This document shows, in pieces, positions 9,659 to 41,643 of a stretch of DNA of 64,000 bases. The notes beneath the pieces are model-generated. The model had not been told where the DNA came from, ran no database searches, and saw only the letters and a program-made list of their open reading frames with translations. The stretch's first letter is position 1. The number at the start of each line of letters is the position of its first letter. The translations under genes and the position numbers were made by a program. This DNA is from a virus (lineage: Duplodnaviria; Caudoviricetes): the IMG/VR virus record IMGVR_UViG_3300020371_000002, one strand, 5' to 3'.

Positions 9659-9859
9659 CTACTCCTCTCCGTGTTTAAATAAATCTTCCATATTTTCGAA
9701 CATCTTATCCATTTTCTTCAGTTGGTCGATACCCATAATCATCTTAGAGATGGTATGACTAACGTAAGGTTCTTCGTGTCTCGCAGCAAATGCGAGTGCA
9801 TTACGCAGAGATTGTTCCGCTTCTGTGAGAGAACTCTCTACTCTTTCAGACAGTGCCAT
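9659..9859 (-). CDS. Hypothetical protein
   Basis: SLRNALAFAARHEEPYV; packed operon. Confidence 0.6.
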   Translation of the reverse strand: MALSERVESSLTEAEQSLRNALAFAARHEEPYVSHTISKMIMGIDQLKKMDKMFENMEDLFKHGEE

Positions 9860-10892: not shown

Positions 10893-11168
10893 CTAGAGTT
10901 TTCCTCCTACAACTCCATCATACGACGTAGACGTTTCTGGGAATCCGTGTTTGACCCCATGTAAGTGGAATACAGTTCCATCGTAACAAGCCCCCTTGGT
11001 AAGTGCGGTGATGATTCCCTTACCTTCCTTATCATAGCTAGTCCAAAGTCCAAATCTCGACTGCTTGAGTTCAAAGATTCCTGTTCCATGGTCATACCAA
11101 TTTCCTTCTTGAATCAAATCGTTGTATGGATGTTCATAAATGTCAGAACTCTTCGTTTCTTCTTTCAT
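10893..11168 (-). CDS. Hypothetical protein
   Basis: FGLWTSYDKEGKGIIT...YDGVVGGKL C-terminus typical of T4-like small proteins. Confidence 0.6.
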   Translation of the reverse strand: MKEETKSSDIYEHPYNDLIQEGNWYDHGTGIFELKQSRFGLWTSYDKEGKGIITALTKGACYDGTVFHLHGVKHGFPETSTSYDGVVGGKL

Positions 11169-16821: not shown

Positions 16822-17067
16822 TTACTCCTGATGATGTGCTTTTAGGTCAGGATTTGGTGACGATTTTTCTTTGGCCGACAGGGTTTTGTTTTGAAGGACA
16901 ATAAACTTATCCTTCTTAAACGTCCCCGCAGTTTTGACCTCAATATCGTGACCATTCCAACCTAACTCAGAAATCTGGAGGGCTAGTTGACCTAGCCATC
17001 CACCTTCAGATTGAATAGTATTACTACCCAGAACTTTTTCGTCTGGATCAAGTGAACCGTGTTTCAA
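16822..17067 (-). CDS. Hypothetical protein downstream of psbD
   Basis: ATGA-coupled to the psbD stop. Confidence 0.55.
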
Positions 17068-18119
17068 AGTGCGTTGCCTCGTGGTAAAACTTCTTCTGGG
17101 AATACGAAGTTCTCATGTGGTTGGTCAGCAGGTGCCATCCAAGCACGAAGACCTTCATTCAGAAGGATATTTTTGGTGTAGAAGGTCTCAAATTCAGGAT
17201 CTTCTGATGCTCTCAGTTCCTGGGATACAAAGTCATAAGCCCTAAGGTTGAGAGCAAGACCAATAATACCGATGGAACTTGTCCACAGACCCATAACAGG
17301 AACAAACAACATAAAGAAATGCAGCCACCTCTTATTGCTAAACGCAATACCAAAGATCTGAGACCAGAAGCGGTTTGCAGTAACCATTGAATAGGTTTCT
17401 TCTTCCTGAGTTGAGTCGAAGGCTTTAAATGTGTTTGCCTGTTCACCGTCTTCATAGAGAGTATTCTCTACTGTAACACCGTGGATTGCAGAAAGCAATG
17501 CACCACCAAGGATACCTGCAACACCCATCATATGAAATGGATTCAGGGTCCAATTATGAAATCCTTGGAGGAAGAGTAGGAATCGGAAGATTGCTGATAC
17601 ACCGAAGGATGGAGCAAAGAACCAACTGCTTTGCCCCAAAGGATAGATGAGGAAAACAGAGACGAAGACAGCAATAGGACCAGAGAAAGCAATTGCATTA
17701 TAGGGACGAATACCAACGAGTCTAGAAATTTCAAACTGTCGTAACATAAATCCAATCAGAGCGAAGGCCCCGTGGAGGGCAGTGAACGCCCAGAGTCCTC
17801 CTAACTGAACCCATCGAACGAAGTCTCCTTGCGCCTCAGGACCCCACAGGAGGAGTAGAGAGTGTCCCATGGCGTCTGCAGGTGTAGAGACTGCAGCAGT
17901 AAGGAAATTACAACCTTCGAGATAAGATGAAGCAAGACCATGCGTGTACCAACTAGTTACAAATGTAGTACCAGTCAACCACGCACCAATAGCAAGATAT
18001 GCCGTGGGGAATAGTAAGATTCCTGACCAACCAACAAAAACAAATCGATCTCGTTTAAGCCAGTCGTCAAGAACATCAAACCAACCGATCCTCGGCTGAA
18101 CCAGAGTTGATGCGGTCAT
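17064..18119 (-). CDS. psbD: Photosystem II D2 protein
   Basis: [16 protein letters not shown]...[18 protein letters not shown]...[10 protein letters not shown]. Confidence 0.99.
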
Positions 18120-18277: not shown

Positions 18278-19357
18278 TCAACCGATAGCAGGTGCGGTGA
18301 GTGCCACAGGAGTGGACTCAGCAGCAGCAAGGTCAAGAGGGAAGTTGTGAGCGTTACGCTCGTGCATTACTTCCATACCAAGACCAGCACGGTTGAGAAC
18401 ATCAGCCCAAGTAGGGATGATTTTGTTCTGACTATCAACAATAGACTGGTTGAAGTTGAAACCGTTCAAGTTGAACGCCATCGTAGACACACCCAGTGCG
18501 GTGAACCAAATACCAACTACAGGCCATGCAGCAAGGAAGAAGTGCAAGGAACGGGAGTTGTTAAAAGATGCGTACTGGAAGATCAGGCGACCGAAGTAGC
18601 CGTGAGCAGCGACGATGTTATAAGTCTCTTCTTCCTGACCAAACTTGTAACCATAGTTCTGCGACTCAGTTTCGGTAGTCTCGCGAACCAACGAAGAAGT
18701 AACCAGACTTCCATGCATAGCAGAGAAAAGAGATCCACCGAATACCCCAGCAACACCGAGCATGTGGAACGGATGCATAAGGATATTGTGTTCTGCTTGG
18801 AATACAAGCATGTAGTTAAAAGTACCAGAGATACCAAGAGGCATACCATCGGAGAAAGAACCCTGACCAAAGGGGTAGACGAGGAAAACAGCAGTTGCAG
18901 CAGCAACGGGTGCGCTATAAGCAACACAGATCCAGGGACGCATACCCAGGCGATAGGAGAGTTCCCACTCACGACCCATATAAGCGAAGACGCCAATAAG
19001 GAAGTGGAAGACTACGAGTTGGTAAGGACCACCGTTATACAACCACTCATCAAGAGAGGCAGCTTCCCAAATGGGATAGAAGTGGAGTCCAATTGCGTTT
19101 GAAGAAGGGACAACAGCACCAGAGATGATGTTGTTACCGTACATGAGTGAACCAGCGACGGGTTCACGGATACCGTCGATATCGACGGGGGGTGCTGCGA
19201 TGAACGCAACAATGAAACAAATAGTAGCAGCCAGCAGGGTAGGGATCATCAGAGTACCGAACCAACCCACATAGAGGCGGTTCTCGGTAGAAGTTACCCA
19301 CTGACAAAACGATTCCCAGTTAGATTGGGACTGGGGGCGTGAAAGTGTTTGAGCCAT
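18278..19357 (-). CDS. psbA: Photosystem II D1 protein, no intron
   Basis: [10 protein letters not shown]...[13 protein letters not shown]. Confidence 0.99.
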
Positions 19358-19987: not shown

Positions 19988-21256
19988 TTACTTTACGCAA
20001 GAGGTACATACATGTGCCAGTTCTGGAAGATGTTCAAAGTACCCAAAGTCAAACACGGCATCGAGTTCCCAGATAAACATTGGGTGAGCAATGGGAGATG
20101 TAGTCCAAGGGTCATCCATCTGCACCGCGCCCTCTAAAGTAAAGTCTTGGGACATACAGATCTTCATAAACTCAGATCCTTGAACTTGATTCAGGGATAC
20201 CTCAGAAGCCCAATCCCAGAAAGGAGTCTTATGAATACTTCCTCTATGGTAATGAAAAGCAATGAAGTCTCGGAATGAACTCAGATATGTAGTGTACTGA
20301 TTATTCAATTCATCTTCCGACATATCATATGTGAAATACTCAACCGCCAAAGTGGCAAGGGTTGTGTAGAGAGGAACTCCATATCCGTGAAGAGGTTCAT
20401 ATGTATAGAGAGCATTTCCATTTCTTAGAATTCTTCCATCAACAAACTTCTTTGAGTGATAATGGGGCCAACTAAAAGACTTTACGTTATCTCTAAGTTT
20501 ATCGTAATCAATATGTTGTCTGGGAATCCTATGTTCTCTAAGGAATCTATGTGAGTCCTCAATGGCCTCTTCTTTGGTAGTAACCTTATTATTGTATAGG
20601 TATCCCCAACTACTCCTGTTACTAACTGGTATACCAAACATCCAACCATTTGGATGGGCAATGTGATAGGTCCATTCCCAGTCTCCTGGTTTATCACAGA
20701 CGTTTATGATAGCAGAATTAATTACAATCGATTCTGGGCTCTCATATGTATCATCAAATTCCTGTGGTATACCTCTACAGTCAATAATATAATGATATTC
20801 GTGCGTCTCTCCATTCATAGAGAGATATGCCCTTTTAGAGTCCTGCCAAAACCTATCTACAGTACCATGAACTTCTTTAAACTTGTGTCCCCAATAATGT
20901 TTGAGTCTTGGCAGTACAAATGATCTCCAAGAATATGTGTCAGCGTGTACTCCTTGACAAGACAAAGACAGATACCCGTTGAGACTCTCAGGAAAGTTCT
21001 GAGACTCGCACCAGTCCACAAGGGCAACACCATGTTTGATTGTGGCATTTACTTCCTTCATATCAAAGGGAAACTGGAACTGCAACGCTCCCCTTAGTAA
21101 CTGAACGAAGTCATGCGAAAGACTTTCTCCCACGCCAATAATAGGAGAATTAGGATCGTGAATAAGATCTATTTTTAAATTCTCTGGAGATCTGGAACAC
21201 ATCACCATAGCCGTGACTAGCCCTCCAGTTCCTCCACCAATGACAGCAATTTTCAT
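19988..21256 (-). CDS. Flavin-dependent tryptophan-halogenase-like protein (PrnA family)
   Basis: MKIAVIGGGTGG, IGVGES, NATIKHG (conserved Lys), GWMFGIP, EPL. Confidence 0.8.
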   Translation of the reverse strand: MKIAVIGGGTGGLVTAMVMCSRSPENLKIDLIHDPNSPIIGVGESLSHDFVQLLRGALQFQFPFDMKEVNATIKHGVALVDWCESQNFPESLNGYLSLSCQGVHADTYSWRSFVLPRLKHYWGHKFKEVHGTVDRFWQDSKRAYLSMNGETHEYHYIIDCRGIPQEFDDTYESPESIVINSAIINVCDKPGDWEWTYHIAHPNGWMFGIPVSNRSSWGYLYNNKVTTKEEAIEDSHRFLREHRIPRQHIDYDKLRDNVKSFSWPHYHSKKFVDGRILRNGNALYTYEPLHGYGVPLYTTLATLAVEYFTYDMSEDELNNQYTTYLSSFRDFIAFHYHRGSIHKTPFWDWASEVSLNQVQGSEFMKICMSQDFTLEGAVQMDDPWTTSPIAHPMFIWELDAVFDFGYFEHLPELAHVCTSCVK

Positions 21257-21262
21257 AGTGAA

Positions 21263-21330
21263 CCTGGCCAACGAAAAAAAGCCCAGAATTTTTTTCCGAG
21301 CTTTTTTGGAATCAAAGTCCGTTTTTGGTA
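21263..21330. repeat. Dispersed ~65 bp repeat, copy 2
   Basis: Nearly identical to 2346-2413. Confidence 0.85.
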
Positions 21331-21762: not shown

Positions 21763-21972
21763 TTAAACTAATCCGAAAAATAGGTTACCAGTGAAGGTAT
21801 ATGAGATTGCTCCGAAGAGAATACCCATCATTGCTGCACGTCCGTTCCAAAGTTCTGCTTTTTCAGCATGAGTTTGGTATCCGTAACGTTCTGCATCTGT
21901 TTTAGAAACCCACATTTGTGGTTCCTTAGCGAACATGTTCTGTTGTCCGTACTCGTTTGTTGTAACAGTCAT
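21763..21972 (-). CDS. hli: High-light-inducible protein
   Basis: NMFAKEP, AELWNGRAAMMG. Confidence 0.92.
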   Translation of the reverse strand: MTVTTNEYGQQNMFAKEPQMWVSKTDAERYGYQTHAEKAELWNGRAAMMGILFGAISYTFTGNLFFGLV

Positions 21973-22010
21973 GATACAAATGTGTCCCTTATGTAACGAA
22001 TTACTACATA

Positions 22011-22039
22011 ATTATATAGGAAACGTAAAGTTTTGTCAA
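22011..22039 (-). promoter_or_regulatory. Consensus sigma70 promoter for the hli genes
   Basis: TTGACA-17nt-TATAAT. Confidence 0.85.
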
Positions 22040-22044
22040 CAAAG

Positions 22045-24453
22045 TTAACAATCGATTTTCCAGATTCTCTGACAATAATCCTTGATAGATCTGTCTGAAG
22101 AGAAGAACCCAGATCTGGCAATGTTTTTCAGTGATTTCTTATACCAATCTTTTCTGTCAACCCAGTTCTCACTAACTTGATCTTGTACAGAAACATAGTG
22201 TTCTAGGTCAGCCAAAACAAAGAATGGATCGTGATTAATAATGTTGTCTAATAGGTCCGAGAAAAGATTCTGATCACCGTGACTAAAATGTCCAACTCTA
22301 ATCAGATTTAATGCCTCTTCAATCTCATGGTTGAGGAAATTCCTTGGATAGTATCCATTGGATTGTAACTGACCAATCTCTTCCTCATTCTTACCAAACA
22401 AGAAGAAGTTTTCTTCACCTACAAGGTCACGGATCTCTACGTTAGCACCATCAAGTGTACCAATAGTCAAAGCACCGTTCATCTGGAACTTCATATTACC
22501 TGTACCAGATGCTTCCTTACCTGCGGTAGAGATCTGTTCTGATAGATCTGCGGCAGGGTAAACCAACTCACCCAACTTGACACTATAGTTTGGAAGGAAT
22601 ACAACTTTGAGTTTACCCTCCATGTCTGGGTCAGAATTAATTACCTCAGCAAGACAATTAATAAAGTGGATGATCTGTTTGGCCATGTAATATCCAGGTG
22701 CAGCTTTACCACCAAAGATTACGGTTCTGGGAACATAACTGGCACCATTCTTAATGCGAAGGTATTGAATAACAACTTCAAGAGCCTTCAGGTGTTGTCT
22801 CTTGTACTCATGAATCCTCTTCACATGAACATCAAACATACTAGAAGGATCTACAAGTACACCAAGATTATTATTGATGTAAGAAGCAAGTTTATGTTTT
22901 CCAATCAGTTTGGTCTCTGCAATCTTCTCTAGAAGATTAGAATCATCCTGTTGTTCTTCCAGTTTCCTAAGGATATCCATGTTGGTTACCCACTCAGGTC
23001 CAACAGCATCATCTAAAACCTCAGCGAGTGGTTGATTACATGACTTCAACCAACGTCGTGGAGTCACACCATTAGTAACGTTCTCGAACTTGTGTGGCCA
23101 CAAATCATAGAACTCTGGCATCAACTGACTCTTAACCAACTCAGAGTGGAGAACTGCAACACCATTCACATGGTGAGATCCAACAGTTGCAAGGTGAGCC
23201 ATTCGTACAGACTTGTTACCATCTTCACAGATGATAGAGAGTTTAGAAAGCATCTCAGAATCGCCAGGATACTTCAATCTAACTACCTGTAGGAACCTCT
23301 CATTGATCTCGTAGATGATCTCTAGGTGACGAGGCAGGAGTTCTTCGAACATACTAACGTCCCACTTCTCTAACGCCTCAGGCAGGAGTGTATGGTTGGT
23401 ATATGCAATCGACTTACTTGTAACACTCCATGCTGTATCCCAGTCCAACTGATGTTCATCAATCAACAGTCTCATCAACTCTGCGACAGCAATAGATGGA
23501 TGAGTATCATTGAGTTGCAGTGTATAGTAATCTGCAAAATCAGTTACAGGAACACCCCTCTTGATAAGAGACATCAACATGTCCTGAATAGAACAACTCA
23601 CAAAGAAGAATTGTTGTTTCAGTCTCAACTGGCGTCCTGCATCTGTTCCATCGTTAGGGTACAGAACCTTAGAGATAGTCTCAGAACGAACACTCTCTTC
23701 TACAGATCCAAGATAGTCTCCCTGATTGAAAGCACCAAAGTCAAATATATCTTTAGCATCGGCTCTCCAGAGTCTTAACTTATTACACCCGTTTTTATAT
23801 CCCACCTGAAGAACGTCATAAGGAACACCCTCAACAATCTGAGAGGGAACCCAACGACTTTTATATGTGCCATCAGTGGATGAAGTATAGTGTTCTACCT
23901 TACCACCGAATCCAACTGTACGAGTGTCATCAGGGTAGGCAAGTTCCCAAGGCCATCCACCATGCAACCAGTTATCAGTAACCTCATACTGTTGATTATC
24001 AGAAATGACCTGTTTAAAGATACCAAATTTATATCTAATACCGTATCCAATAGCAGGTACTTCTAGAGTCGATAGAGACTCCATATAACATGCAGCCAGA
24101 CGACCAAGACCTCCATTACCCAGTCCAGGTTCCTCTGACTTCTCTAGAACCTCCTCAAGGGTAAGATCATACTGTTCTAATGCTTGTCTGGCTTCCTCTT
24201 GAATACCAAGGTTGACAAGATTATTTCCTAACTGTGGTCCAATCAAAAATTCTGCGGACAAGTATGCAACTTGTTTTGTATTCTCAGACTTGGCTAACTG
24301 ATTCAGATGAAGATCCATCATCCGATCCCTTACTGCATAACAGAGTGCCATATAAAAATCATATGCACTTGCAGTATCGACACGTTTTCCTAGAGTATAA
24401 AAGATATGTTGTCCAATACTGTCTAGGAGTTCATTCTTATTAGTTGTGGTCAT
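22045..24453 (-). CDS. glgP: Glycogen/alpha-glucan phosphorylase (GT35), 802 aa
   Basis: GLGNGGLGRLAAC, RLKQQFFFV, QLNDTHP, KRIHEYKRQ, PLP-Lys motif EASGTGNMK, GFFSSDRSI. Confidence 0.97.
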   Translation of the reverse strand: MTTTNKNELLDSIGQHIFYTLGKRVDTASAYDFYMALCYAVRDRMMDLHLNQLAKSENTKQVAYLSAEFLIGPQLGNNLVNLGIQEEARQALEQYDLTLEEVLEKSEEPGLGNGGLGRLAACYMESLSTLEVPAIGYGIRYKFGIFKQVISDNQQYEVTDNWLHGGWPWELAYPDDTRTVGFGGKVEHYTSSTDGTYKSRWVPSQIVEGVPYDVLQVGYKNGCNKLRLWRADAKDIFDFGAFNQGDYLGSVEESVRSETISKVLYPNDGTDAGRQLRLKQQFFFVSCSIQDMLMSLIKRGVPVTDFADYYTLQLNDTHPSIAVAELMRLLIDEHQLDWDTAWSVTSKSIAYTNHTLLPEALEKWDVSMFEELLPRHLEIIYEINERFLQVVRLKYPGDSEMLSKLSIICEDGNKSVRMAHLATVGSHHVNGVAVLHSELVKSQLMPEFYDLWPHKFENVTNGVTPRRWLKSCNQPLAEVLDDAVGPEWVTNMDILRKLEEQQDDSNLLEKIAETKLIGKHKLASYINNNLGVLVDPSSMFDVHVKRIHEYKRQHLKALEVVIQYLRIKNGASYVPRTVIFGGKAAPGYYMAKQIIHFINCLAEVINSDPDMEGKLKVVFLPNYSVKLGELVYPAADLSEQISTAGKEASGTGNMKFQMNGALTIGTLDGANVEIRDLVGEENFFLFGKNEEEIGQLQSNGYYPRNFLNHEIEEALNLIRVGHFSHGDQNLFSDLLDNIINHDPFFVLADLEHYVSVQDQVSENWVDRKDWYKKSLKNIARSGFFSSDRSIKDYCQRIWKIDC

Positions 24454-24455
24454 GG

Positions 24456-25052
24456 TTAGTTAGTGATAGAAGGCAAATCGAATTTGTACCATCCTGTTGC
24501 GATGTACTTCTTCTGTGTTTCGGAAATTTGACTCTTGTGTGTATGAGTCCAGTAGGCAGGCCAAATAACTGCACGTCCTGCAACTGCTTCAATAATAGTT
24601 TCTTGTTCTAAAAACATAGTTCCCCCATCAGGAACGTCATTCAAATAAATCATCCATACCAGAATCCTATTAGTTCCTGATACTGAATCGGGATAATCCT
24701 CCCACCCACCTTGTTCACAATGCCATCCTTTGAATCCACCGCCAGGTTGATACATCTGGATGTTGTACTTATGATCTAGACTCCACTCATCACTAACATT
24801 GGCGACACCAGGGTGTTGTTCAATGTACTCACCTGTAAGTTCGATAAGTTTTTCTTTAAGTATTAGATCACAAGCATCTTCAGTATTGAAAGACTTGCAC
24901 CAATCAGTAGAATCTTTCCATGCCTTGTTAGCATCATAAGACCCCTGAGTTACCCCAGGGGTAAATTCACCATGATTAATGTGAAACAATTTTATTAATC
25001 GTTCACACTCTTTTGGTGTTAAAACATTATCCTTCACATATGTGAACTTCAT
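24456..25052 (-). CDS. Fe(II)/2OG oxygenase (prolyl-4-hydroxylase-like)
   Basis: WHCE...RILVWMIYLNDV..GGT.F...IWPA.WTHTH...KYIATGW. Confidence 0.85.
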   Translation of the reverse strand: MKFTYVKDNVLTPKECERLIKLFHINHGEFTPGVTQGSYDANKAWKDSTDWCKSFNTEDACDLILKEKLIELTGEYIEQHPGVANVSDEWSLDHKYNIQMYQPGGGFKGWHCEQGGWEDYPDSVSGTNRILVWMIYLNDVPDGGTMFLEQETIIEAVAGRAVIWPAYWTHTHKSQISETQKKYIATGWYKFDLPSITN

Positions 25053-25219
25053 GCATTCAGTCTCTCTTCAATCGCGAGCAATGTTTCATATGGAATCCAT
25101 GCAGGTTCCTCATCTTTGAATTGAACCTCCACTTCTTTTACATTTTTCTGTAGCCACTTTGAGTACACAACACGAGTGTTTTGTACATAGGAAATAGGAT
25201 TCATGTAACTATTTTTCAT
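25049..25219 (-). CDS. Small hypothetical protein (56 aa)
   Basis: MNPISYVQNTRVVYSKW...EVEVQFKDEEPAWIPYETL; ATGA overlap. Confidence 0.65.
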   Translation of the reverse strand: MKNSYMNPISYVQNTRVVYSKWLQKNVKEVEVQFKDEEPAWIPYETLLAIEERLNA

Positions 25220-25237
25220 TTGGTTCTATCCTATCAC

Positions 25238-26266
25238 TTATCGGACATCATGTCCACCAAACATGTAACGCATACCATTCAAGATTTTGTTTGCATATCT
25301 TCCTAACTTTCTCGAATTAAATCGTTCAAAGAGAGCAGCAGATATAACAGGAGTGGGCACGCCGAGGTCCACAGCAGCATGAAGAGTCCAACGACCTTCA
25401 CCACTATCGCTGACACCCCCGTCAAACTTGTTGAGATCGTCATTATCGTGGCGTAATACATCAGCGGTAAGGTCAAGTAACCAGCTACCAACAACAGAAC
25501 CACGACGCCAAAGCTCAGCAACCTCAGTAGTATCAATGTCGTACTGATAATCTTCGGGGTGTTCCATGGGAGCGACCTCGGCATCGCCTTCCACCACATA
25601 ACTTCTTCCTGCATTTGCCTCATGAAGTAGGTTAAAACCTTCCGCATAAGCTTGCATGATTCCATATTCAACTCCGTTATGGACCATCTTTACGAAGTGA
25701 CCTGCGCCTGGTGGTCCACAATGTAACCAACCAAATTCTGCACTAGTTGATGTTGTGTATGGATCTGTTCTGGGTGCTGCACCCATGCCAGGTGAAAGAG
25801 CCCTGAAAATGGGGGCACAAACAGATACTGCCACACTTGAACCACCAACCATAAGACAGTATCCACGCTCCAAACCAAACACACCACCGCTAGTACCGCA
25901 GTCAATAAATTGGATACCCAAGTTTTCCAAGAATTTTGCCCTGCGTCTACTGTCTTTAAAATTGGAATTGCCATGATCAATAATAATATCTCCACTGCTA
26001 AGTAATGGTAGTAACTCATTGATTGTCTCCTCTACGTTTTCTGCAGGGACAACCAACTGAAAAATACCATTCTCCAGTCCTCCCTTCTTTACCTCCTGTA
26101 CAAGTAATGGAATGTCAGTGGTAACTCCACTAACATAACCCTTTTCATATGCCTCTTGGGCCTTTTGGTAGTTGCGGCGATAACCCCAAACTTCAATACC
26201 TTCTTTCATCATGCGGCGAGACATGCCCTCGCCCATTCTCCCTAGTCCGATGATACCGACTCTCAT
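25238..26266 (-). CDS. gnd: 6-phosphogluconate dehydrogenase, copy 1
   Basis: GLGRMG, IDHGNS, DCGTSGG, GAGHFVKMVHNGVEYG, SGEGRWT; start re-assigned to MRVGII. Confidence 0.96.
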   Translation of the reverse strand: MRVGIIGLGRMGEGMSRRMMKEGIEVWGYRRNYQKAQEAYEKGYVSGVTTDIPLLVQEVKKGGLENGIFQLVVPAENVEETINELLPLLSSGDIIIDHGNSNFKDSRRRAKFLENLGIQFIDCGTSGGVFGLERGYCLMVGGSSVAVSVCAPIFRALSPGMGAAPRTDPYTTSTSAEFGWLHCGPPGAGHFVKMVHNGVEYGIMQAYAEGFNLLHEANAGRSYVVEGDAEVAPMEHPEDYQYDIDTTEVAELWRRGSVVGSWLLDLTADVLRHDNDDLNKFDGGVSDSGEGRWTLHAAVDLGVPTPVISAALFERFNSRKLGRYANKILNGMRYMFGGHDVR

Positions 26267-26267
26267 T

Positions 26268-27596
26268 TTAAGCTCCTGGATAATCCCATTTTGTAATTGA
26301 CTGATGCCCTTTTGGTCCCCACTCACCTGAGAAGTATGGGGACGGTTTCGTGTCTATTCTACATGCCTCTCCCTGGCATAGAAGATCATCTACAATCCTC
26401 CAAGATTCTAAAACCTCTTCGGAGTGAACAAAGTGTGATTGATCTCCATGGATGGCGTCATATAATAATTTGACATAACCATCACTTGCATTCTCTGTCG
26501 GATACTGATGCGACAGGACTGCCGTTTGTACCTTGTCCTCAAGACCAGGCGATTTAATATCGATGCTAATATTGAGTGAAGGATTTGGTTGAATACGAAT
26601 ATAAATTTTATCTTCGTAATCATGTCCTTGAAATAGATGCAATGGTGGTTGTTTCAATTTAATAACAACCTCAGCACATCTCATAGGCATCTTCTTACCT
26701 GTCAAGAAGTAGAAGGGAACACCCTTCCATCTCCAATTATCTATGTAGATATCGCCAGCACTGTATGTGGCAGTCTGTGACGACTCTTTAACACCTTCTT
26801 CTTCTCTGTACCCAACATACTGACCAGAGGTAAGTTTTTCACCAAGTCTGGCAGCAGCAAGAACTTTAACTTTCTCTCTACGAATTTCTCTTGCACTATT
26901 TCTGCAAGGTGGTTCCATTGCAATCAACGAAAGTATTTGCAGCATATGATTCTGCAACATATCACGGACTGCACCAGCACCTTCATAGTATTGAGATCTA
27001 CCTTCACATCCGATAGTCTCGGTCGCAAAGATCTGCACCTCACTCACATAGTTTCTGTTCCAGAGAGGTTCCAATAATGTATTAGAGAATCTCGTAGCAA
27101 GTATATTATTGACCGTATCTTTGCCAAGATAATGATCAATACGATAGACCTGTTTCTCACGGAGATGTTCAGACACTACCTGCTGAAGATTCTCAGCAGA
27201 TTTCAAGTCATGTCCAAACGGTTTCTCAATAACCACCCTAGACTTATCAATGTCATCTAGACATCCAGCCAACTTCAAATGTTTAATTCCATCTGCATAC
27301 TTTTCTGGTGGTACAGAAAGAAAGTATGTGGTATTGCAATCAAATTTAAGAACACCTAAAGACTCAGGTCTACTGAGATTGACAGGTTTATAGTCCATCA
27401 AGTCTTGAAATGCCTTAGGGTACTCCCCAATCTTCTCAAACCATTCGTATCTCTTGAGAACAGTTCGAGATGCACCAATAATTTTAAAGTTTCTGGGGAG
27501 AAGTTTCCTCAGCCAGAGTTCATACAAAGAAGGTATTAGTTTACGGCGACAGAGATCTCCCGTCGCACCGAAAATTACTATGCAATTATCCATCAA
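26268..27596 (-). CDS. zwf: Glucose-6-phosphate dehydrogenase, copy 1
   Basis: IFGATGDL, IEKPFG.DL, YRIDHYLGK, RDMLQNH, NWRWKGVPFY. Confidence 0.97.
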   Translation of the reverse strand: MMDNCIVIFGATGDLCRRKLIPSLYELWLRKLLPRNFKIIGASRTVLKRYEWFEKIGEYPKAFQDLMDYKPVNLSRPESLGVLKFDCNTTYFLSVPPEKYADGIKHLKLAGCLDDIDKSRVVIEKPFGHDLKSAENLQQVVSEHLREKQVYRIDHYLGKDTVNNILATRFSNTLLEPLWNRNYVSEVQIFATETIGCEGRSQYYEGAGAVRDMLQNHMLQILSLIAMEPPCRNSAREIRREKVKVLAAARLGEKLTSGQYVGYREEEGVKESSQTATYSAGDIYIDNWRWKGVPFYFLTGKKMPMRCAEVVIKLKQPPLHLFQGHDYEDKIYIRIQPNPSLNISIDIKSPGLEDKVQTAVLSHQYPTENASDGYVKLLYDAIHGDQSHFVHSEEVLESWRIVDDLLCQGEACRIDTKPSPYFSGEWGPKGHQSITKWDYPGA

Positions 27597-27877
27597 TTAC
27601 GCCACTGAATACCATCACCACTCAAAGGATCCCATGGAGCCTGTTGAGCAAACATAAGACTCAAAATCGTATAACAGATCAACCATACGATATTGATGAA
27701 CATGTTTTGTTGAAATGCGAACCTTCTAAATCGCATGGCACCAATCTTGGCATTATCTGAGGCAGTCTCAGATCGTAGAACAACTTGTTCAATGACCAGA
27801 GATACAAGAAAGATTCCTGCAAGTGGTAACCACCAAAAATTGGCAAAACTTAGAATGTATAAAAGAATTACTTTCAT
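27593..27877 (-). CDS. Membrane hypothetical protein
   Basis: Two TM segments; ATGA-coupled to zwf. Confidence 0.6.
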   Translation of the reverse strand: MKVILLYILSFANFWWLPLAGIFLVSLVIEQVVLRSETASDNAKIGAMRFRRFAFQQNMFINIVWLICYTILSLMFAQQAPWDPLSGDGIQWRN

Positions 27878-28110
27878 CCTTTGACTTCTCTTTGGAAATA
27901 TTCGGGGAGTGGACACCCCTTAAATCTATTAATCTCGTCCACTGCTAATACAAACATAGTACAAAAACCAAGGCAAAATGCAAATAACATTTGAGGAAAG
28001 TTATAGTTCCCCATATATGCTGTGGGATCAGGTTCGTCATCATGCGGATGCATGTGTCTTGCGATCCTTTCTGTTTCTTTTTTTCTCTCTTCCTCGGTTT
28101 TCTTTGACAT
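27874..28110 (-). CDS. Membrane hypothetical protein, paralog of 63150-63392
   Basis: HPHDDEPDPTAYMGNYNFPQMLFAFCLGF identical in both copies. Confidence 0.7.
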   Translation of the reverse strand: MSKKTEEERKKETERIARHMHPHDDEPDPTAYMGNYNFPQMLFAFCLGFCTMFVLAVDEINRFKGCPLPEYFQREVKG

Positions 28111-28111
28111 G

Positions 28112-28195
28112 TTAACCTCGGTATCTACCTGGCCATGTTAACTGCATTCCAGAAACTAACAATAGAATAAATGCAAATGCAAACAATACACTCAT
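28112..28195 (-). CDS. 27 aa single-TM microprotein
   Basis: MSVLFAFAFILLLVSGMQLTWPGRYRG; ATGA-coupled to PTOX. Confidence 0.55.
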   Translation of the reverse strand: MSVLFAFAFILLLVSGMQLTWPGRYRG

Positions 28196-28695
28196 TTGAT
28201 CATCTCAATTGCTTTATGTAGTTCTCTTGAATGCTCTAGTTCATCATTTAAGATCTCAAGGATCTTATCATCATGACCATTCAAAGCAAGATACTTAGCA
28301 TAAGTCTCTGCTGCATGGATCTCTACTTCGTAGGAGAGATGGTAAGCAGCGCGAGGAGCCACCCAATAATAAACCACATTGACCCAATAGTAGATAAGTA
28401 CAAGGTGTCGGGCGAAAAAGCGATCAATCCAATAAGAATTGCCACCCCGACTTTCCATATACTCCAGATGTTCTGTTTCGTTAAGAGTCTGAGCAAAATG
28501 TTCCTCCATCAAATAGATGTGTTCTGGACCTCGTAAACCCATAGATTCTCTCAAGTGCAACACACTTAAGAATGCAAAGTATGGTGCCCGAGCAATCTCC
28601 TCTAGTACCCAAAAACGTTGATAATCCCTCCCTCTGTATAAGAAATCAATGATTGCGACTGTGATGTTTAATGTGATCTCGTTGAAGCGTTGCAT
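28192..28695 (-). CDS. ptox: Plastoquinol terminal oxidase
   Basis: RFWVLEEIARAPYF, NETEHL, EVEIHAAETY, NDELEH di-iron motifs. Confidence 0.93.
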   Translation of the reverse strand: MQRFNEITLNITVAIIDFLYRGRDYQRFWVLEEIARAPYFAFLSVLHLRESMGLRGPEHIYLMEEHFAQTLNETEHLEYMESRGGNSYWIDRFFARHLVLIYYWVNVVYYWVAPRAAYHLSYEVEIHAAETYAKYLALNGHDDKILEILNDELEHSRELHKAIEMIK

Positions 28696-28754
28696 AAGCA
28701 GGGCCTCTTAGGAATAATCCTATTATATCTAGGTATTTTCACTAGTGTGAATTG

Positions 28755-30311
28755 TTAGTAAATCAACTCATTTCCTAGGACTAAGGCATCAATATCCATA
28801 GACATATAAGCCCTTACAGCATCTTCAGGAGTCTCCACAATTGGCATACCATTATCATTAAATGAAGTGTTTAATAGTACAGGCACTCCACATAGATTCC
28901 ACATCTCCTGTAACAACTGAGCGAGAGGTCCATCACTAACTGTCTGCAGTCTACATGTGCCATCCTCATGCGTAATCGCAGGGATCATACGTCGTCTGTC
29001 ATGTCTAACAAACTGAGAGAATAACATATATGGGTTATCCACACCCTCTTCAACAAAGTCATCCAGATGATCCCGCAAAATGACACCAGCAAAAGGTCTC
29101 CATGGTTCCCTGTGTTTAACTCGTTCGTTTAAAATCTTTTTATTCTTTGCAGCACAAGGACTCATAAGAATAGATCTAGATCCCAATGCTCTAGGACCAA
29201 ACTCCGACCTACCTTGGAACCAGGCAACAATCTTCCCCTGATTCAATAACTCTGCAACTTCTTTGATAGTATCTTCAGCAACAGGTTCCGTATATTCTTT
29301 ACCAAGGAAGGCAAGATTATCTGGGACAGTTACATCATCACATCCCCATGCTGCAGCACCATAACTCAATCCACAATCTCCAGGGAAAGGAGTAAATGTA
29401 AATGTATGATTGGGGAATTCTTTTTTGATGCGTGTGTTCAAACAGATATTGAGAAAGATACCTCCACTAAGGCACACATGTTTAGTCAAGTATCCTTTTG
29501 TTTCCAATGCACTCAGGTAGTCCACCACAGAGTTTTCAAAGTTATACTGCAACCATGCAGCTCTATCTTGTGGGTTAAAGTAACGATACCTTCCTATAGG
29601 TGGTGTCTTAAATTCTAATCGAGGAAATCCTCTGGTACAAATCTCATAGTCATCAGAAAGATCATGTACCATTCCATATGCGGCAAGTCCCATTACTTTG
29701 CCTGCCCAGGACTCACAATGTTTATGATCTATAGGAGAAAGATCCTTCTTAGTTTTATCACAATAAATTCGATGAGCCCAACTTTGATAATACAATCCAA
29801 ACTTACCACCAATATCAAACTGGCGATACATTCTTTCCTTCTTATTAAAGTATCCGAAAGTTACTGTCTCGGTATAGAGTTGTTGACCACCAATAACACC
29901 ATAACTTCCTCCGCCATCAATAATTAAAAAAGATCCATCGTTCACATCAGTAGAGTACATTGCAGAGTATGCATGTGCCTGATGATGTGAGATGAATTTT
30001 ATATCGGACTTAGGAAAACTATGTTTAACTGTGTTCATTGAACCATCAAGGTCCATGAAGTATCGTTTGTTGCCTGGTTCTGGTACAACTACAACATCAA
30101 TATCATCTGATGTCAGGCCTGCTGCAGACAAACAATACTCAATAGATTTGTATGGAAAATTTCCATCATACTTATATCCAGTTAAGCGTTCTTCTTGGAT
30201 ACTGCATACATGATTGCCGTTACAGAAAAGAGTGACTCCTGAGTCATGAACCCAGTCTTCATCACAATGACTGTCCCAACCTAATGCTCCGTATAATCCA
30301 ATTACATTCAT
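28755..30311 (-). CDS. O-carbamoyltransferase (NodU/CmcH family)
   Basis: IQEERL, SHHQAHA, IDGGG, GKVMGLAAYG, GRSEFGPRALGSRSIL, KHREPWRPFA, LLNTSFN. Confidence 0.92.
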   Translation of the reverse strand: MNVIGLYGALGWDSHCDEDWVHDSGVTLFCNGNHVCSIQEERLTGYKYDGNFPYKSIEYCLSAAGLTSDDIDVVVVPEPGNKRYFMDLDGSMNTVKHSFPKSDIKFISHHQAHAYSAMYSTDVNDGSFLIIDGGGSYGVIGGQQLYTETVTFGYFNKKERMYRQFDIGGKFGLYYQSWAHRIYCDKTKKDLSPIDHKHCESWAGKVMGLAAYGMVHDLSDDYEICTRGFPRLEFKTPPIGRYRYFNPQDRAAWLQYNFENSVVDYLSALETKGYLTKHVCLSGGIFLNICLNTRIKKEFPNHTFTFTPFPGDCGLSYGAAAWGCDDVTVPDNLAFLGKEYTEPVAEDTIKEVAELLNQGKIVAWFQGRSEFGPRALGSRSILMSPCAAKNKKILNERVKHREPWRPFAGVILRDHLDDFVEEGVDNPYMLFSQFVRHDRRRMIPAITHEDGTCRLQTVSDGPLAQLLQEMWNLCGVPVLLNTSFNDNGMPIVETPEDAVRAYMSMDIDALVLGNELIY

Positions 30312-31085: not shown

Positions 31086-31955
31086 TCAACCCACAGCTGG
31101 AGAAGAGAGTTCTTCGACACCTGCCCTTTGTTGACTAGACTGTTGATTAGGGTTATCCCTACCAGCAACTCGACCCAGATAAGGATCAAACTCACTAATC
31201 ATATCGATTGTGATGTCAGATCCCCGAGTCTCCCAAAGATTACGAAGTCCATTATGGCTTCCTCTGTGGAAGATTTCGATATGTTCTGGATGAATTGACG
31301 ATCCCAATTCTATCTTGTACAAGAAAATGGGGCAAGCGTATGAGGCACCTGAGTTATAGATGAGATCATCCGCAACTGGTCGGGGTTTGACACCGTTGTC
31401 AAGTTTGTACTGGTCTCCTCGGCAGTGCAAGTCAATCAGTTTCTTGGCGTGGTGACGGGTAATAACATAACATGCCGTGGAGAAATCGTTAATAAATCTG
31501 CGATGAATGTTTACATGCAGTTCTCCTGGGCAAATAATGGCGACCTGAACTGTGTCCCAATCATAAGGAACTCTAGAGATGAACTGTCTCCAAGTAAAGG
31601 TCCAGTATTTGGCAATACTAATATCACAATCATCTTCCATGATGATTGCATATGGTTCATCAGTTTCATAATAAAACTGTTTAATGGCTTTGAGGTGACT
31701 GGTAACGCATCCAATCTCTCCTGCTGACATATCGGCAGGGTAACGTCCCTTCACGATCTCACTCAAATCTTCACCAGTTTCGGGTCTACCATCATAAGCA
31801 GAGACGCGAGTATAGTTTTCAACTTGCCAATAATCAAGTTGTTCCTGCATCCATTGCCAACGTTCTGGTTGACCATCAAGGTTGATCACATAGACAGGAC
31901 CAAAACCTTTTAGTTTATATGCTGATTTGTTTTTATCCATTAGATTGTAATCCAT
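31086..31955 (-). CDS. Glycosyltransferase family 25-like
   Basis: YVINLD..PER, RVSAYDG, EIGCVTSHL, IMEDD, STACYVIT...A. Confidence 0.85.
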   Translation of the reverse strand: MDYNLMDKNKSAYKLKGFGPVYVINLDGQPERWQWMQEQLDYWQVENYTRVSAYDGRPETGEDLSEIVKGRYPADMSAGEIGCVTSHLKAIKQFYYETDEPYAIIMEDDCDISIAKYWTFTWRQFISRVPYDWDTVQVAIICPGELHVNIHRRFINDFSTACYVITRHHAKKLIDLHCRGDQYKLDNGVKPRPVADDLIYNSGASYACPIFLYKIELGSSIHPEHIEIFHRGSHNGLRNLWETRGSDITIDMISEFDPYLGRVAGRDNPNQQSSQQRAGVEELSSPAVG

Positions 31956-32797
31956 CCTTCACAATATAAGTCTTTGGTGTCCTTGTCCTTATAATCAGGA
32001 CCAAACCACATCTTAGGAGCGACGACTTTACCGCGTCCTCTCTGCAACCAGGCACCCCACCAAGAGAGGGAAGAGTTAGCAATGATAGCACCGCTGCACA
32101 TACTCATGATACAGAGGTCTACAAAGGGTTCCCATGAACCATCAGAATACTTATCTGTTGGTTCTGATACAAGGAACCTATCATCAGCAAAGAACTCTTG
32201 TTCCTTAACCCACTCAGGGGAGTCTGAACAGATGATTACTGGTTGATCCTCAGGAAACTCCTTCAGAGCTTCCTCGTAATAGGCCAACGGTTGTGGTGGA
32301 TGTTGCGACGAGCATTGCGTGTACGACCACTTAAATCCCCTAGCATCGACGAGGTTAGGATCACCGCGACGAACGTGAAGAAAGATAGGTGGCGAATCCA
32401 TCGAATCCATAAGCTCCTTGACAGGAGCACTGATGGAATCATGGAACGTAAAGTCTCTAGCAATCTCGTCTTTGATGTTTGCAAAATACTTTTCGGTCTG
32501 GAAGAAACCAAACAGACTTACATCGTTGGGACACATTCTATGTAGTTCTTCATCGAAATGGAAATGTTTTTCCATTACTACAGGGGCATGGCCACGATCC
32601 AGAACGAATTGATTTCTTTGTCCTACTGATTCTAACGTGAAGGCACGATACAAACTGTAGTTATCAACACGTTTAACATCATCAGGTGGAATACAAAACT
32701 CATACCCACGCATTGCAGCGATACCTCTAACCGCTGCATATTGGAACATCTGGTTACCGAGTCGGCCCAAGTTCCCGATTTGATTAAAGGCTAGCAT
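31940..32797 (-). CDS. Alpha-1,2-fucosyltransferase family (GT11), paralog 1
   Basis: GRLGNQMFQYA, FLHVRRGD, DLCIMS.C...IIANSSLSWWGAWL. Confidence 0.92.
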   Translation of the reverse strand: MLAFNQIGNLGRLGNQMFQYAAVRGIAAMRGYEFCIPPDDVKRVDNYSLYRAFTLESVGQRNQFVLDRGHAPVVMEKHFHFDEELHRMCPNDVSLFGFFQTEKYFANIKDEIARDFTFHDSISAPVKELMDSMDSPPIFLHVRRGDPNLVDARGFKWSYTQCSSQHPPQPLAYYEEALKEFPEDQPVIICSDSPEWVKEQEFFADDRFLVSEPTDKYSDGSWEPFVDLCIMSMCSGAIIANSSLSWWGAWLQRGRGKVVAPKMWFGPDYKDKDTKDLYCEGWITI

Positions 32798-33620
32798 TTA
32801 ACTGTTCTCCCCTGACTTTAAGATAATGCAAATTCGAATAATAACCAGCGAGTGTATCACGGTCTTGATTTCTAATCCACTGCCAAAGTTTATCATTATC
32901 TTGGAACTTTGGATTGTGGTAATGAGAGTTAAATGTTCTACCATGTTCGAAGTGGTAGATATCATCAACAACCCTTCCAACTTTAAAGCCAAAAAGATTC
33001 AATCGATAATAAAACTCACAGTCTTCAGCACCCCAAGATAGGAACTCTTCGTTCCACATTCCCATGGATACTTCTACAGCCTTTTGAATCATTTGTCCCC
33101 ACCCAATAGAGGATGGGATGCGTTGTTTACTATCTTTGAGAACTCCTAGATCAAAATCATTTCCATCGTGAGATGAAAGAAATTTATCTAAGAGTTCATC
33201 AGAATATGTAACAGCCCATTGATAGATACCACATCCAAAAGGATACACAGCATGTGATCCTTCTTTAACAATAGAGTGGTGTGCAAGTTCGTAACTATTC
33301 TTAGGCAAAACAACATCCACATCATGATTATAGATGATAGGAGTCTCTGCTGCACAACAAAGATCATTCAAGATCCTAGTCTTGTGGAATAGTTTTTCAT
33401 CACTCTCCTCAAAGATATGAATCAGATTGTCAGTGTCACCGACATACTTTTCAATTCTAGGGAAAGCATATTCTTTGAAGACGGATTTAGTATCCTCTTC
33501 TTGAATCATTACTTTCGATTCAGGAAAGTTCTTCAGTAGATATGATACAGAAGTAATGACATTGCGAAGTCTATCTTCAGTTTCAATTCTACATGGCAGT
33601 AGAAATGTTACGTCTTTCAT
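32784..33620 (-). CDS. Galactosyltransferase-like (GT7/GT2)
   Basis: FHKTRILN, HDVD, WNEEFLSWGAEDCEFYYRL, YHFEH. Confidence 0.8.
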   Translation of the reverse strand: MKDVTFLLPCRIETEDRLRNVITSVSYLLKNFPESKVMIQEEDTKSVFKEYAFPRIEKYVGDTDNLIHIFEESDEKLFHKTRILNDLCCAAETPIIYNHDVDVVLPKNSYELAHHSIVKEGSHAVYPFGCGIYQWAVTYSDELLDKFLSSHDGNDFDLGVLKDSKQRIPSSIGWGQMIQKAVEVSMGMWNEEFLSWGAEDCEFYYRLNLFGFKVGRVVDDIYHFEHGRTFNSHYHNPKFQDNDKLWQWIRNQDRDTLAGYYSNLHYLKVRGEQLNASL

Positions 33621-34522
33621 TGTTCAGGTGTTACAGGCGATGGGTCATTGTGCAGTTTCACCCATCTAGAAGGAATCATATCCTTCATATCATAATGAGC
33701 GTAGGCAGGACCAAACCAAGGATCGGGTGCAATGATAGGATTTTTTGGATCACGAATGAGCCATGCACCCCACCAAGACAGCGAACTATTAGCAATTATA
33801 CCACCACTACAGAGAGACATCAAACATAAGTCGATGTAAGGTACAGACGCGCCATCTCCAAATACTTCATAAGAAGAATCGGAGAAGTGGAAGTTATCGC
33901 CTTGAAGCCAATCTTGTTTTTTGCACCAGTCGATCAAGTCAGAAACCACAATCACATTTAGATCCGCAAGTGGGAAATGCGTCAAGGCTTCTTTGTAGTA
34001 TTCAGCCTTACACAGAGGATGATACTCTTGTACCATCTGGTAAGACCACTTTTCACCACGGCGACCTGTCAAACCAGGGCTTCCACGGCGAACATGGAGG
34101 AAGATGCACTTATCACGTCCTCCAAGACTATCAATAAACTCTTTACAGGGTTCAAGATAGCAGTTACGAAAAGTGAAATCATCTCTAATACTATCAGAGA
34201 TGGCTTCAAAGTATTTTTCTGTTTGAAAATTACCTGAGAAGTTCGTATTATCCTCACATTCATTGAAGATCTTCTCATTGAAATGCATGTCACGATACTC
34301 AACTCTATTGGGAAGAAACTTCTCACTAGTGTTCTGACCGATCTTACAATTCGTTAGGTTAAATGCCTCAAACAAACCATAGTTATCAAGTCTGTCAGCA
34401 TCAGGCCCAGGAATGTACCAATCAAACTTGCGGTTATGTGCAAGTCCTCTTAAGAAAGCATACTGGAACATTTGGTTACCGAGTCTACCCTCGTTACCAA
34501 GTCCTTGAAATGAAATAGCCAT
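33617..34522 (-). CDS. GT11 fucosyltransferase-like, paralog 2
   Basis: GRLGNQMFQYA, FLHVRRG, IANSSLSWWGAWL. Confidence 0.9.
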   Translation of the reverse strand: MAISFQGLGNEGRLGNQMFQYAFLRGLAHNRKFDWYIPGPDADRLDNYGLFEAFNLTNCKIGQNTSEKFLPNRVEYRDMHFNEKIFNECEDNTNFSGNFQTEKYFEAISDSIRDDFTFRNCYLEPCKEFIDSLGGRDKCIFLHVRRGSPGLTGRRGEKWSYQMVQEYHPLCKAEYYKEALTHFPLADLNVIVVSDLIDWCKKQDWLQGDNFHFSDSSYEVFGDGASVPYIDLCLMSLCSGGIIANSSLSWWGAWLIRDPKNPIIAPDPWFGPAYAHYDMKDMIPSRWVKLHNDPSPVTPEQ

Positions 34523-35382
34523 TATTTACTCCAATCTTGAATTACCCATCTCTCGGGCACAATGTCAGATGTGTCTAGATTTGACATTGCAGTACCAAAC
34601 CATTTCTTAGGATCAGGTGCAATAATCTTTCCACGATCTTTCTGCAACCAAGCACCCCACCATGAGAATGAAGAGTTGGCGATAATGCCACCAGAACATA
34701 GAGACATCAAACACAGATCTACCTGAGGTAGAAGTGTGTTCTGCATCTTTCCAGTACCATCAATAGTTTTATATGTGTATCTCTCGTTCCCTTCGTTAAA
34801 CATGAAGCGATCATCATCAAAGAAGGGTTCATTCTTACACCACTCAATGTCATCAGTGAATACAAAGCAAGGTGTATCTACTGGGAAGTGTGAGAGCGAA
34901 TCCTGAAAATATCGTATCGGGAGGATGGGATGGTACTCTTCCCTTCCGATGTTGTCAGATTGGCGAATATGCAAGAAAATAGGAGGCCTATCCAGGCTAC
35001 TAATAATATCTTTACAAGGATCGAGAAAATCTGATCTGAAGGTGAAGTCTTCACGGATCTGATCGGCGATGTGTCTGAAGTATTTCTCCGTTTGGAGATA
35101 CGCATCAATATTAACACCATCCTTGGTGTTGAACAACGCTTCGTCAAAGTTATGGTTGGATTCCGTAACACTTCTAGCGTTACAAATACCAAGGTTATCT
35201 GGTTTACAGTTAACCATTTCAAAGGTCTCAAAAAGACCGTAGTTGTCCTTATGATCTACATCATCGGATGGAATTTGCCAATGGTAACCATTGTAGGCAG
35301 CAATACCCCTGAGGGAGGCATACTGGAACATTTGATTACCCAGTCTGCCATTACTACCAAGTCTATTATAGCTAATAGTCAA
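34522..35382 (-). CDS. GT11 fucosyltransferase-like, paralog 3
   Basis: GRLGNQMFQYA, FLHIRQSD, IANSSFSWWGAWL. Confidence 0.9.
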   Translation of the reverse strand: MTISYNRLGSNGRLGNQMFQYASLRGIAAYNGYHWQIPSDDVDHKDNYGLFETFEMVNCKPDNLGICNARSVTESNHNFDEALFNTKDGVNIDAYLQTEKYFRHIADQIREDFTFRSDFLDPCKDIISSLDRPPIFLHIRQSDNIGREEYHPILPIRYFQDSLSHFPVDTPCFVFTDDIEWCKNEPFFDDDRFMFNEGNERYTYKTIDGTGKMQNTLLPQVDLCLMSLCSGGIIANSSFSWWGAWLQKDRGKIIAPDPKKWFGTAMSNLDTSDIVPERWVIQDWSK

Positions 35383-38132: not shown

Positions 38133-38133
38133 T

Positions 38134-41608: not shown

Positions 41609-41643
41609 AAGTGTTTGGATAGTGTAGCAGTTTATTTAGTATA

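Follow-up and report, generated by a model that had tools for sequence, protein, structure and literature searches.

Why should a cyanophage carry a glycogen phosphorylase, and where would the sugar that it releases go? The question is raised by glgP in a 64,000-nucleotide stretch of viral DNA (IMG/VR record IMGVR_UViG_3300020371_000002; hereafter the window, meaning the whole stretch analysed). The gene closes a minus-strand run that also encodes plastoquinol terminal oxidase (PTOX), glucose-6-phosphate dehydrogenase (zwf) and 6-phosphogluconate dehydrogenase (gnd), and the original prediction took this run for a glycogen-to-nucleotide funnel. Our answer, which we hold with moderate confidence, is that glgP is a host-derived auxiliary gene of T4-like cyanomyoviruses whose active product feeds the pentose phosphate pathway from host glycogen and is probably free of host redox control.

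The window GlgP is indeed a complete member of the GT35 family. It matched PF00343 at 1025 bits, covering the profile from end to end (positions 1–713 of 713), and NCBIfam TIGR02093 at 1138 bits against a cut-off of 552.9. The pyridoxal 5'-phosphate (PLP)-lysine motif EASGTGNMK, to which the original prediction had pointed, lies at residues 647–655 and aligned with the same motif in PDB 9wvu and 9ukq; GNGGLGRLAAC, TNHT, TNGVTPRRW and KRIHEYKRQ were all conserved in the alignment to solved phosphorylases. K655 and the other catalytic and PLP motif residues were invariant across 14 viral homologues. By equating them with rabbit-muscle numbering, we take the KRxHEYK residues, the TNHT histidine, the TNGV asparagine and the GNGGLGRLAAC loop to form the phosphate and substrate site. 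Among the solved structures, the cyanobacterial-type alpha-1,4-glucan phosphorylase 9wvu aligned over its full length at ~60% identity, and E. coli GlgP and rabbit muscle phosphorylase aligned as well. In length, the viral proteins (about 791–813 aa) resemble E. coli MalP (796–797 aa; PDB 1l5v and 1ahp; E-value 1e-231), a compact GT35 enzyme without covalent or allosteric control. However, the MalP alignment begins only at query residue 52, whereas those of the GlgP structures begin from about residue 7, and the natural substrate of MalP is linear maltodextrin, whereas the viral protein descends from glycogen phosphorylase.

The genome around the gene is that of a T4-like cyanomyovirus. The window also encodes psbA and psbD, talC, thyX and a cyanophage outer-membrane-protein gene, and its gnd/PTOX region matches 161 cyanophage records, including Syn30, S-E7, Bellamy and S-SM2. 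It could nevertheless be argued that host DNA was wrongly joined to the phage contig at glgP during assembly, or that the gene is a recent passenger without function, given that the protein is 63–67% identical to host GlgP and that hardly any cultured cyanophage has the gene. Against this, identical junctions recur in independent assemblies. The same arrangement was observed in the IMG/VR contigs L128 (100% identical) and L129; G001, a 70-kb record that overlaps the window and ends inside glgP, has an identical or near-identical arrangement; and in 16 marine metagenome runs, with holders from 8 studies, half or more of the words sampled from 22045–26330 are present. Phage genes flank glgP on both sides in all contexts seen. 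G+C is flat through the glgP region at 0.40–0.42, like that of the phage, compared with ~36–44% (Prochlorococcus-like) or 52–61% (marine Synechococcus-like) at host glgP loci. Because the same junctions are shared by L128, L129, G001 and marine metagenomes of several studies, and with G+C flat throughout, a host-DNA chimera at this locus, the check that the original prediction had itself named, was rejected and the locus is considered real.

The relationship of the viral to the host enzymes bears on the same point. GlgP is encoded by 149 of the 151 sampled host-family genomes, and the matches at 63–67% identity come from both low-GC (Prochlorococcus-like) and high-GC (marine Synechococcus-like) genomes. 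They were obtained by a family-wide search; an earlier genome scan by peptide pattern was biased, missed the marine hosts and returned Cyanobium/Vulcanococcus paralogues and proteobacteria at 53–58%. Other cyanobacterial paralogues are 55–59% identical to the window GlgP and proteobacterial proteins 52–55%. In a maximum-likelihood tree of 82 sequences, the 26 viral or metagenomic ones formed a single clade (SH-aLRT, an approximate likelihood-ratio support, 100) on a stem of length 0.57. This clade fell within the marine Synechococcus/Prochlorococcus GlgP clade (support 99), with the Cyanobium copy and the proteobacteria outside, and in the best tree it was sister to the low-GC hosts (support 88). 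Within it, the window GlgP and P0002 make up a divergent sub-lineage. The nearest cellular relatives are the GlgP proteins of marine Synechococcus and Prochlorococcus (840–848 aa), the single GT35 phosphorylase of these hosts, with which the 63–67% identity extends over the entire core and all catalytic and PLP motifs are shared. The GT35 phylogeny that had been called for suggests that viral glgP was derived once from the marine picocyanobacterial GlgP lineage.

The viral GlgP is under clear purifying selection: dN/dS was 0.118 (dS 0.59) between the window and L008 and 0.136 and 0.154 in two further viral pairs, comparisons with L004 being left out since the longest open reading frame (ORF) compared there was DNA polymerase. 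Such values among the viral copies (0.12–0.15), and a viral clade that is deep, monophyletic and diversified on a long stem, further argue against a chimera or a functionless passenger, which we regard as very improbable. As to gene number in the hosts, marine genomes of 1.6–2.5 Mb mostly gave a single GlgP match; G002, a Cyanobium-like genome of freshwater or brackish type, has three GlgP paralogues (L090, L093 and L096; 63, 59 and 55% identity to the phage protein).

The most consistent difference between the viral and host enzymes was observed at their ends. In an alignment of 26 viral and 31 host proteins (host loci L098–L127 and L090), the hosts have an N-terminal peptide of ~25 aa (consensus M..S.P.DLRLPTPGC..DPERAG.D) and a C-terminal tail of ~12 aa (consensus ..P.PVEITCD..). 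The N-terminal P(T/S)P(G/S)C peptide with its conserved cysteine was present in 31/31 host proteins, and the C-terminal (I/V)(T/S)C tail in 30/30 marine hosts and in the Cyanobium copy L090; neither motif was found in any of 120 metagenomic and 80 IMG/VR viral copies. Viral proteins start ~25 residues later than host GlgP and end 10–12 residues past SSDRSI, compared with 21–27 in hosts. The window gene admits no longer frame: an in-frame stop precedes the ATG at 24453 with no other start between them, and 2 nt separate this ATG from the end of the gene upstream. The window GlgP ends in a single terminal Cys (..IDC; 22045–22050), which it has in common only with the 89%-identical P0002 and which the other viral copies lack. 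Proteobacterial relatives also have a C-terminal tail (..VP(I/V).L..), so that in our sample a C-tail is not restricted to cyanobacteria. An AlphaFold2 model of a host GlgP with its tails (mean predicted local distance difference test score 55.8, both tails <50) was too poor to place them.

The viral and host enzymes also differ by 25 fixed substitutions, clustered at residues 142–260; at 7 of these sites, 81% or more of the remaining bacterial sequences in the sample agree on the residue. Residues 250–260 presumably correspond to the tower helix at the subunit interface (rabbit-muscle numbering). The long stem and these substitutions may reflect compensation.

The C-terminal peptide of Synechocystis GlgP1, an enzyme of the same family, is a thioredoxin-sensitive redox switch with Cys837/Cys842 (bioRxiv 10.1101/2022.11.21.517384; review PMC12892837), and oxidation leaves the enzyme active, whereas reduced TrxA inhibits it (10.1101/2022.11.21.517384). 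The viral enzyme is without this switch: none of the 200 viral copies has the cysteine-bearing C-terminal tail motif. Since both terminal peptides are lost and the C-terminal one has a redox-regulatory role in a model cyanobacterium, the control that the host exerts over glycogen breakdown through light and redox state probably does not extend to the viral enzyme. The original prediction had thought of replication in darkness; the loss of the tails would fit a breakdown of glycogen in the light no less well, at a time when the host's own enzyme is perhaps held down.

Does the position of glgP tell us what its product is for? The features of the window that bear on this question are as follows.
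9846–10499, minus strand: talC, transaldolase (PF00923, 1.1e-52)
17064–18119: psbD
18278–19357: psbA
19988–21271, minus strand: tryptophan-halogenase-like gene
21763–21972, minus strand: hli-like gene, 69 aa, downstream of the site at 22011–22039 (weak Chloroa_b-bind match)
22011–22039, minus strand: perfect promoter-like site, TTGACA-17-TATAAT, 12/12, 6 nt after the glgP stop (consensus scan)
22045–24453, minus strand: glgP, 802-aa GT35 glycogen/alpha-glucan phosphorylase without the host N- and C-terminal peptides (PF00343, TIGR02093)
24456–25052, minus strand: 2-oxoglutarate (2OG)-Fe(II) oxygenase, also adjoining glgP in L008 and L148 (PF13640, phrog_61)
25049–25219, minus strand: orf56, conserved phage small protein (phrog_15922, 4.7e-27)
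25238–26266, minus strand: gnd, 6-phosphogluconate dehydrogenase, 342 aa (PF03446 and PF00393; NF007161 and TIGR00872 above cut-offs)
26268–27593, minus strand: zwf, glucose-6-phosphate dehydrogenase, 441 aa (PF02781, PF00479; TIGR00871 at 453.5 bits against a cut-off of 400.6)
27593–27877, minus strand: small membrane-like ORF, 94 aa from the ATG at 27877, overlapping the zwf start (phrog_10609)
27874–28110, minus strand: orf78, conserved cyanophage small protein (phrog_16669, 4.2e-49)
28112–28195, minus strand: putative 27-codon hydrophobic micro-ORF, overlapping the PTOX stop (ATGA; read from sequence)
28192–28695, minus strand: PTOX, plastoquinol terminal oxidase (PF01786; labelled PTOX in matching cyanophage records)
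28722–28751, minus strand: sigma-70-like promoter candidate, TTCACA-18-TATAAT, 11/12, in the gap before PTOX (consensus scan)
28755–30311, minus strand: carbamoyltransferase gene, upstream of PTOX
35379–36545, minus strand: UDP-glucose/GDP-mannose dehydrogenase (Ugd), within the glycosyltransferase cluster 31086–42381 (PF03721, PF00984)

Profile matches and direct reading of the junctions confirmed an intact GlgP at the end of a tightly packed minus-strand run, PTOX-small ORFs-zwf-gnd-orf56-2OG-glgP, with talC elsewhere in the window, both as the original prediction had described. The gaps are 2 nt between 2OG and glgP, 18 nt between gnd and orf56 and 2 nt between zwf and gnd; orf56 and 2OG, and likewise orf78 and the next small ORF, overlap by ATGA, and the small ORF and zwf by TGATG. 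The starts of gnd and zwf were placed at the ATG at 26266, not at the GTG at 26326, and at the ATG at 27593, respectively. The 81-nt space after PTOX is occupied by the 27-codon ORF, which ends 1 nt before the next small gene; this micro-ORF covers the sole gap of >20 nt within the PTOX-to-glgP run. The site at 28722–28751 is a candidate start for a PTOX-to-glgP transcription unit, and the promoter-like site at 22011–22039 would mark its downstream boundary. A consensus scan found no strong terminator-like site between the promoter candidate before PTOX and the glgP stop. With a promoter-like site ahead of PTOX and no convincing terminator before the end of glgP, co-transcription of the run is plausible from these consensus matches.

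Some further observations concern the surroundings of the run. A 50-aa ORF listed at 21969–22121 overlaps the promoter-like site at 22011–22039 and is probably not a gene. The tryptophan-halogenase-like and carbamoyltransferase genes flank the carbon-metabolism run, and both recur beside glgP in L008, L130 and L173. Farther away, at 49263–49796 (minus strand), lies a gene for a SegE-like GIY-YIG homing endonuclease (PF19835, 1.8e-49).

To place the window's arrangement among other viral ones, ORFs were called in 84 loci, consisting of 80 IMG/VR loci (of 201 contigs) and 4 others, and matched to named reference proteins. In ~55 of the 80, glgP lies in the T4-type replication module, in the order gp44-methylase-gp62-regA-glgP-hsp20-two small genes-gp43. 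The remaining arrangements included GT25-outer-membrane-protein-glgP-Psb34-like-psbA (three loci), hsp20-glgP-orf105 (three loci) and petF-orf75-glgP ... purC-psbA (L002 and L142, with S-SCSM2R similar). The order zwf-gnd-orf56-2OG-glgP was confined to L128 and L129, that is, to the window's own lineage. Closest to it is L008 (89% identity), in which the order is outer-membrane-protein-orf73-2OG-glgP-Psb34-like-tryptophan halogenase with neither zwf nor gnd beside glgP, and zwf was not matched in two IMG/VR fragments of 68–69 kb with regA-glgP, which as fragments cannot show its absence. The census therefore indicates that the block carbamoyltransferase-PTOX-zwf-gnd-orf56 adjoins 2OG-glgP only in this phage, and that the glgP captured by an ancestor has since moved between genome positions. 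One part of the original prediction stands: glgP is phage-borne, intact and host-derived, and mobilisation of glycogen is the best reading of it. The co-located unit, found in L128 and L129 only, is not conserved. The 'funnel' is a local juxtaposition in a variable island upstream of psbA rather than a conserved operon and, because the adjacency to zwf and gnd is lineage-specific, gene order gives a dedicated funnel no support.

The usual position of the gene, in the replication module of ~55 of the 80 loci, is a hint as to its timing. In a scan of one regA-glgP-hsp20 locus, glgP had no terminator on either side, and the sole promoter-like site, a weak one, lay within the end of regA. In L004, a perfect TTGACA-17-TATAAT (10946–10974, plus strand) follows hsp20, mirroring the window's promoter just past glgP. 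In two studies (runs X17 and X18; X19), marine metatranscriptome libraries yielded contigs that cover several parts of glgP at 93–99% likeness. These are compatible with transcription at sea, with DNA carry-over also possible; stretches uncovered in these contigs are no evidence of silence. Run X16, labelled RNA with the source 'viral metagenome' and maybe DNA, was left out of the expression evidence.

We infer the following sequence of events. A single ancestral capture from a marine picocyanobacterial host would have been followed by retention under purifying selection. During infection, the PLP-dependent viral alpha-1,4-glucan phosphorylase would cleave host glycogen with phosphate to glucose-1-phosphate, which host phosphoglucomutase would convert to glucose-6-phosphate. 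This would enter the oxidative pentose phosphate pathway, through phage Zwf and Gnd in this phage and through host enzymes elsewhere, and the pathway would yield NADPH and ribose-5-phosphate for phage DNA synthesis. Without the terminal peptides, the viral enzyme would escape the host's light/redox control. This scheme resembles the cyanophage model of carbon-metabolism auxiliary genes, built on cp12, talC, zwf and gnd and reportedly put forward by Thompson et al. in 2011. The logic is the same, host-derived enzymes driving carbon into the pentose phosphate pathway, and zwf, gnd and talC are all present in the window. Unlike those genes, glgP would act one level higher, on the storage polymer, and it is rare in isolates; its usual home is the replication module and not the auxiliary-gene island.

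Glucose-1-phosphate is also the direct precursor of UDP-, ADP- and dTDP-glucose, and its main destination might instead be nucleoside-diphosphate sugars: host GalU would make UDP-glucose, phage Ugd would oxidise it to UDP-glucuronate, and onward steps would supply the large glycosyltransferase cluster of the phage, for cell-surface remodelling or virion glycosylation. The window's cluster at 31086–42381 encodes GT25, three GT11 proteins, GT10 and three epimerases, and its Ugd (35379–36545) catalyses the step after UDP-glucose. Moreover, glgP lies at the edge of, or within ~9 kb of, a GT25-GT11-Ugd cluster in the window, L008, L130, L131, L173, L002, L142 and S-SCSM2R, so that where glgP borders the glycan cluster this route is a real rival. 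However, no sugar-1-phosphate nucleotidyltransferase was found among the scanned window ORFs, including the cluster; the flanks of glgP in the replication module, its place in ~55 of the 80 loci, are without glycosyltransferases; and surface glycans need far less carbon than the glycogen pool holds. As the general fate of the sugar we consider this route unlikely. In both routes, the first step after glucose-1-phosphate is the host's (phosphoglucomutase or GalU) and the next is the phage's (Zwf/Gnd or Ugd). We rank the pentose phosphate route first because of the replication-module home of glgP, the presence of zwf, gnd and talC, and the fit to the established model of cyanophage carbon redirection. 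Beside Ugd, the glycosyltransferase cluster also contains a gene for a NadE-type NAD synthase (36530–37312, minus strand; PF02540, 2.4e-45).

The same carbon might also serve as general fuel, passing mainly through glycolysis and respiration to ATP when photosynthesis fails (at night, in deep water or late in infection); the supply of NADPH or ribose would then play no special part. Cyanobacteria store glycogen as their source of energy for the night (review PMC12892837). Most glgP-bearing contigs show no zwf or gnd nearby, and in the window PTOX and respiratory-type genes stand alongside glgP, both of which would suit such a use. On the other hand, picocyanobacteria in the dark break down glucose-6-phosphate mostly by way of the oxidative pentose phosphate pathway, so that fuel use and pentose phosphate supply overlap; a position in the DNA-replication module fits a demand for nucleotide precursors; and the absence of the regulatory tails hints at a role beyond the usual night programme. 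A fuel tap of this general kind appears rather improbable.

Supply of the pentose phosphate pathway by a viral enzyme outside host control, the reading that we favour, also has to be weighed against several observations that count against it. GlgP1 lacking its C-terminal peptide is weakly active, not constitutively active (10.1101/2022.11.21.517384), so that loss of the tail alone is no proof of an 'always on' viral enzyme. The arrangement of cysteines also differs, the marine host tails having one Cys each at the N and C terminus, whereas Synechocystis GlgP1 has its Cys pair in the C-tail. Adjacency of glgP to zwf and gnd is limited, as described above, to one lineage. Transcription is not proven by contigs from RNA libraries, which can contain carried-over DNA. 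No phosphoglucomutase was found among the scanned ORFs of the 64-kb window, and PF02878 (phosphoglucomutase) was unmatched in the 70-kb G001, a fragment that cannot show absence; since none was found in either, a host phosphoglucomutase is needed after glucose-1-phosphate, and this dependence, which the original prediction had foreseen, was borne out. Finally, the nesting of the viral clade inside the host clade was not significant: a tree that unites all marine hosts was not rejected by the approximately unbiased test (p = 0.12). We accordingly do not claim that the viral clade is sister to Prochlorococcus, and limit the claim on origin to a single derivation from the marine picocyanobacterial lineage.

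How widespread, and how new, is the viral gene? The supposition that glgP is not a commonly listed cyanophage auxiliary metabolic gene was in agreement with our survey of its prevalence, in which it proved common in environmental contigs and rare in isolates. Relatives are encoded on at least 201 IMG/VR contigs, and the best 120 metagenomic protein clusters are 70–99% identical to the window protein. Among 50,697 phage records, ~476 of which carry cyanophage-type regA at >=60% identity, the only named cyanophage copy is ORF260 of S-SCSM2R (PQ898602.1; 69% identical to the window GlgP). This copy belongs to the same viral clade and likewise lacks the tails; its locus differs from that of the window, with the order petF-peroxiredoxin-glgP-glycosyltransferase and zwf 22 kb away. 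Outside the cyanophages, unannotated 'Bacteriophage sp.' contigs from human faecal viromes (MT835536, MT835718, MT835486 and others) encode full-length GT35 phosphorylases at 37–44% identity.

ORF260 is annotated in GenBank as 'carbohydrate phosphorylase', and PHROGs v4 has a family matching viral GlgP under the label 'unknown function'. In the main text of the S-SCSM2R paper (BMC Biol 2025, PMC12801897) the phosphorylase gene is not discussed, and the S-SCSM1 paper makes no mention of such a gene. According to the review PMC10452541, which cites the proteomic study of Waldbauer et al. 2019, host glycogen phosphorylase is among 12 host proteins still synthesised during S-SM1 infection and has homologues in phage genomes or viral fragments. 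The existence of glgP in viral sequence has thus been noted in passing before, and the gene is not wholly new. No dedicated analysis of viral glgP was found in the literature searched, which may be because the gene is nearly invisible in culture collections. What is new here is how widely the gene occurs in uncultured cyanomyoviruses, most often within the replication module, and that every viral copy has lost the host terminal peptides.

Cyanophage auxiliary genes are the main model for the viral rewiring of metabolism in the most abundant phototrophs of the ocean. As currently accepted, this model comprises the cp12 brake on the Calvin cycle and the enzymes of the pentose phosphate pathway, and leaves the source of glucose-6-phosphate unstated; a viral glycogen phosphorylase, common in environmental cyanomyovirus contigs, would provide the missing first step. 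Loss of both host peptides offers a cheap and concrete handle on viral escape from host redox control, for which a cultured carrier exists in S-SCSM2R, on Synechococcus WH7803, and the terminal peptides point to an unstudied regulatory feature of host GlgP. More speculatively, a regulation-stripped GlgP encoded in the replication module of a large, mostly uncultured group of cyanomyoviruses might uncouple glycogen breakdown from the day/night redox control of the host and make glycogen a main source of carbon and reductant for the synthesis of viral DNA, day or night, with the paired one-Cys peptides of the hosts forming an unrecognised regulatory module. We put this forward as a tentative possibility; if true, infection would measurably alter the diel storage and release of carbon by Prochlorococcus and Synechococcus.

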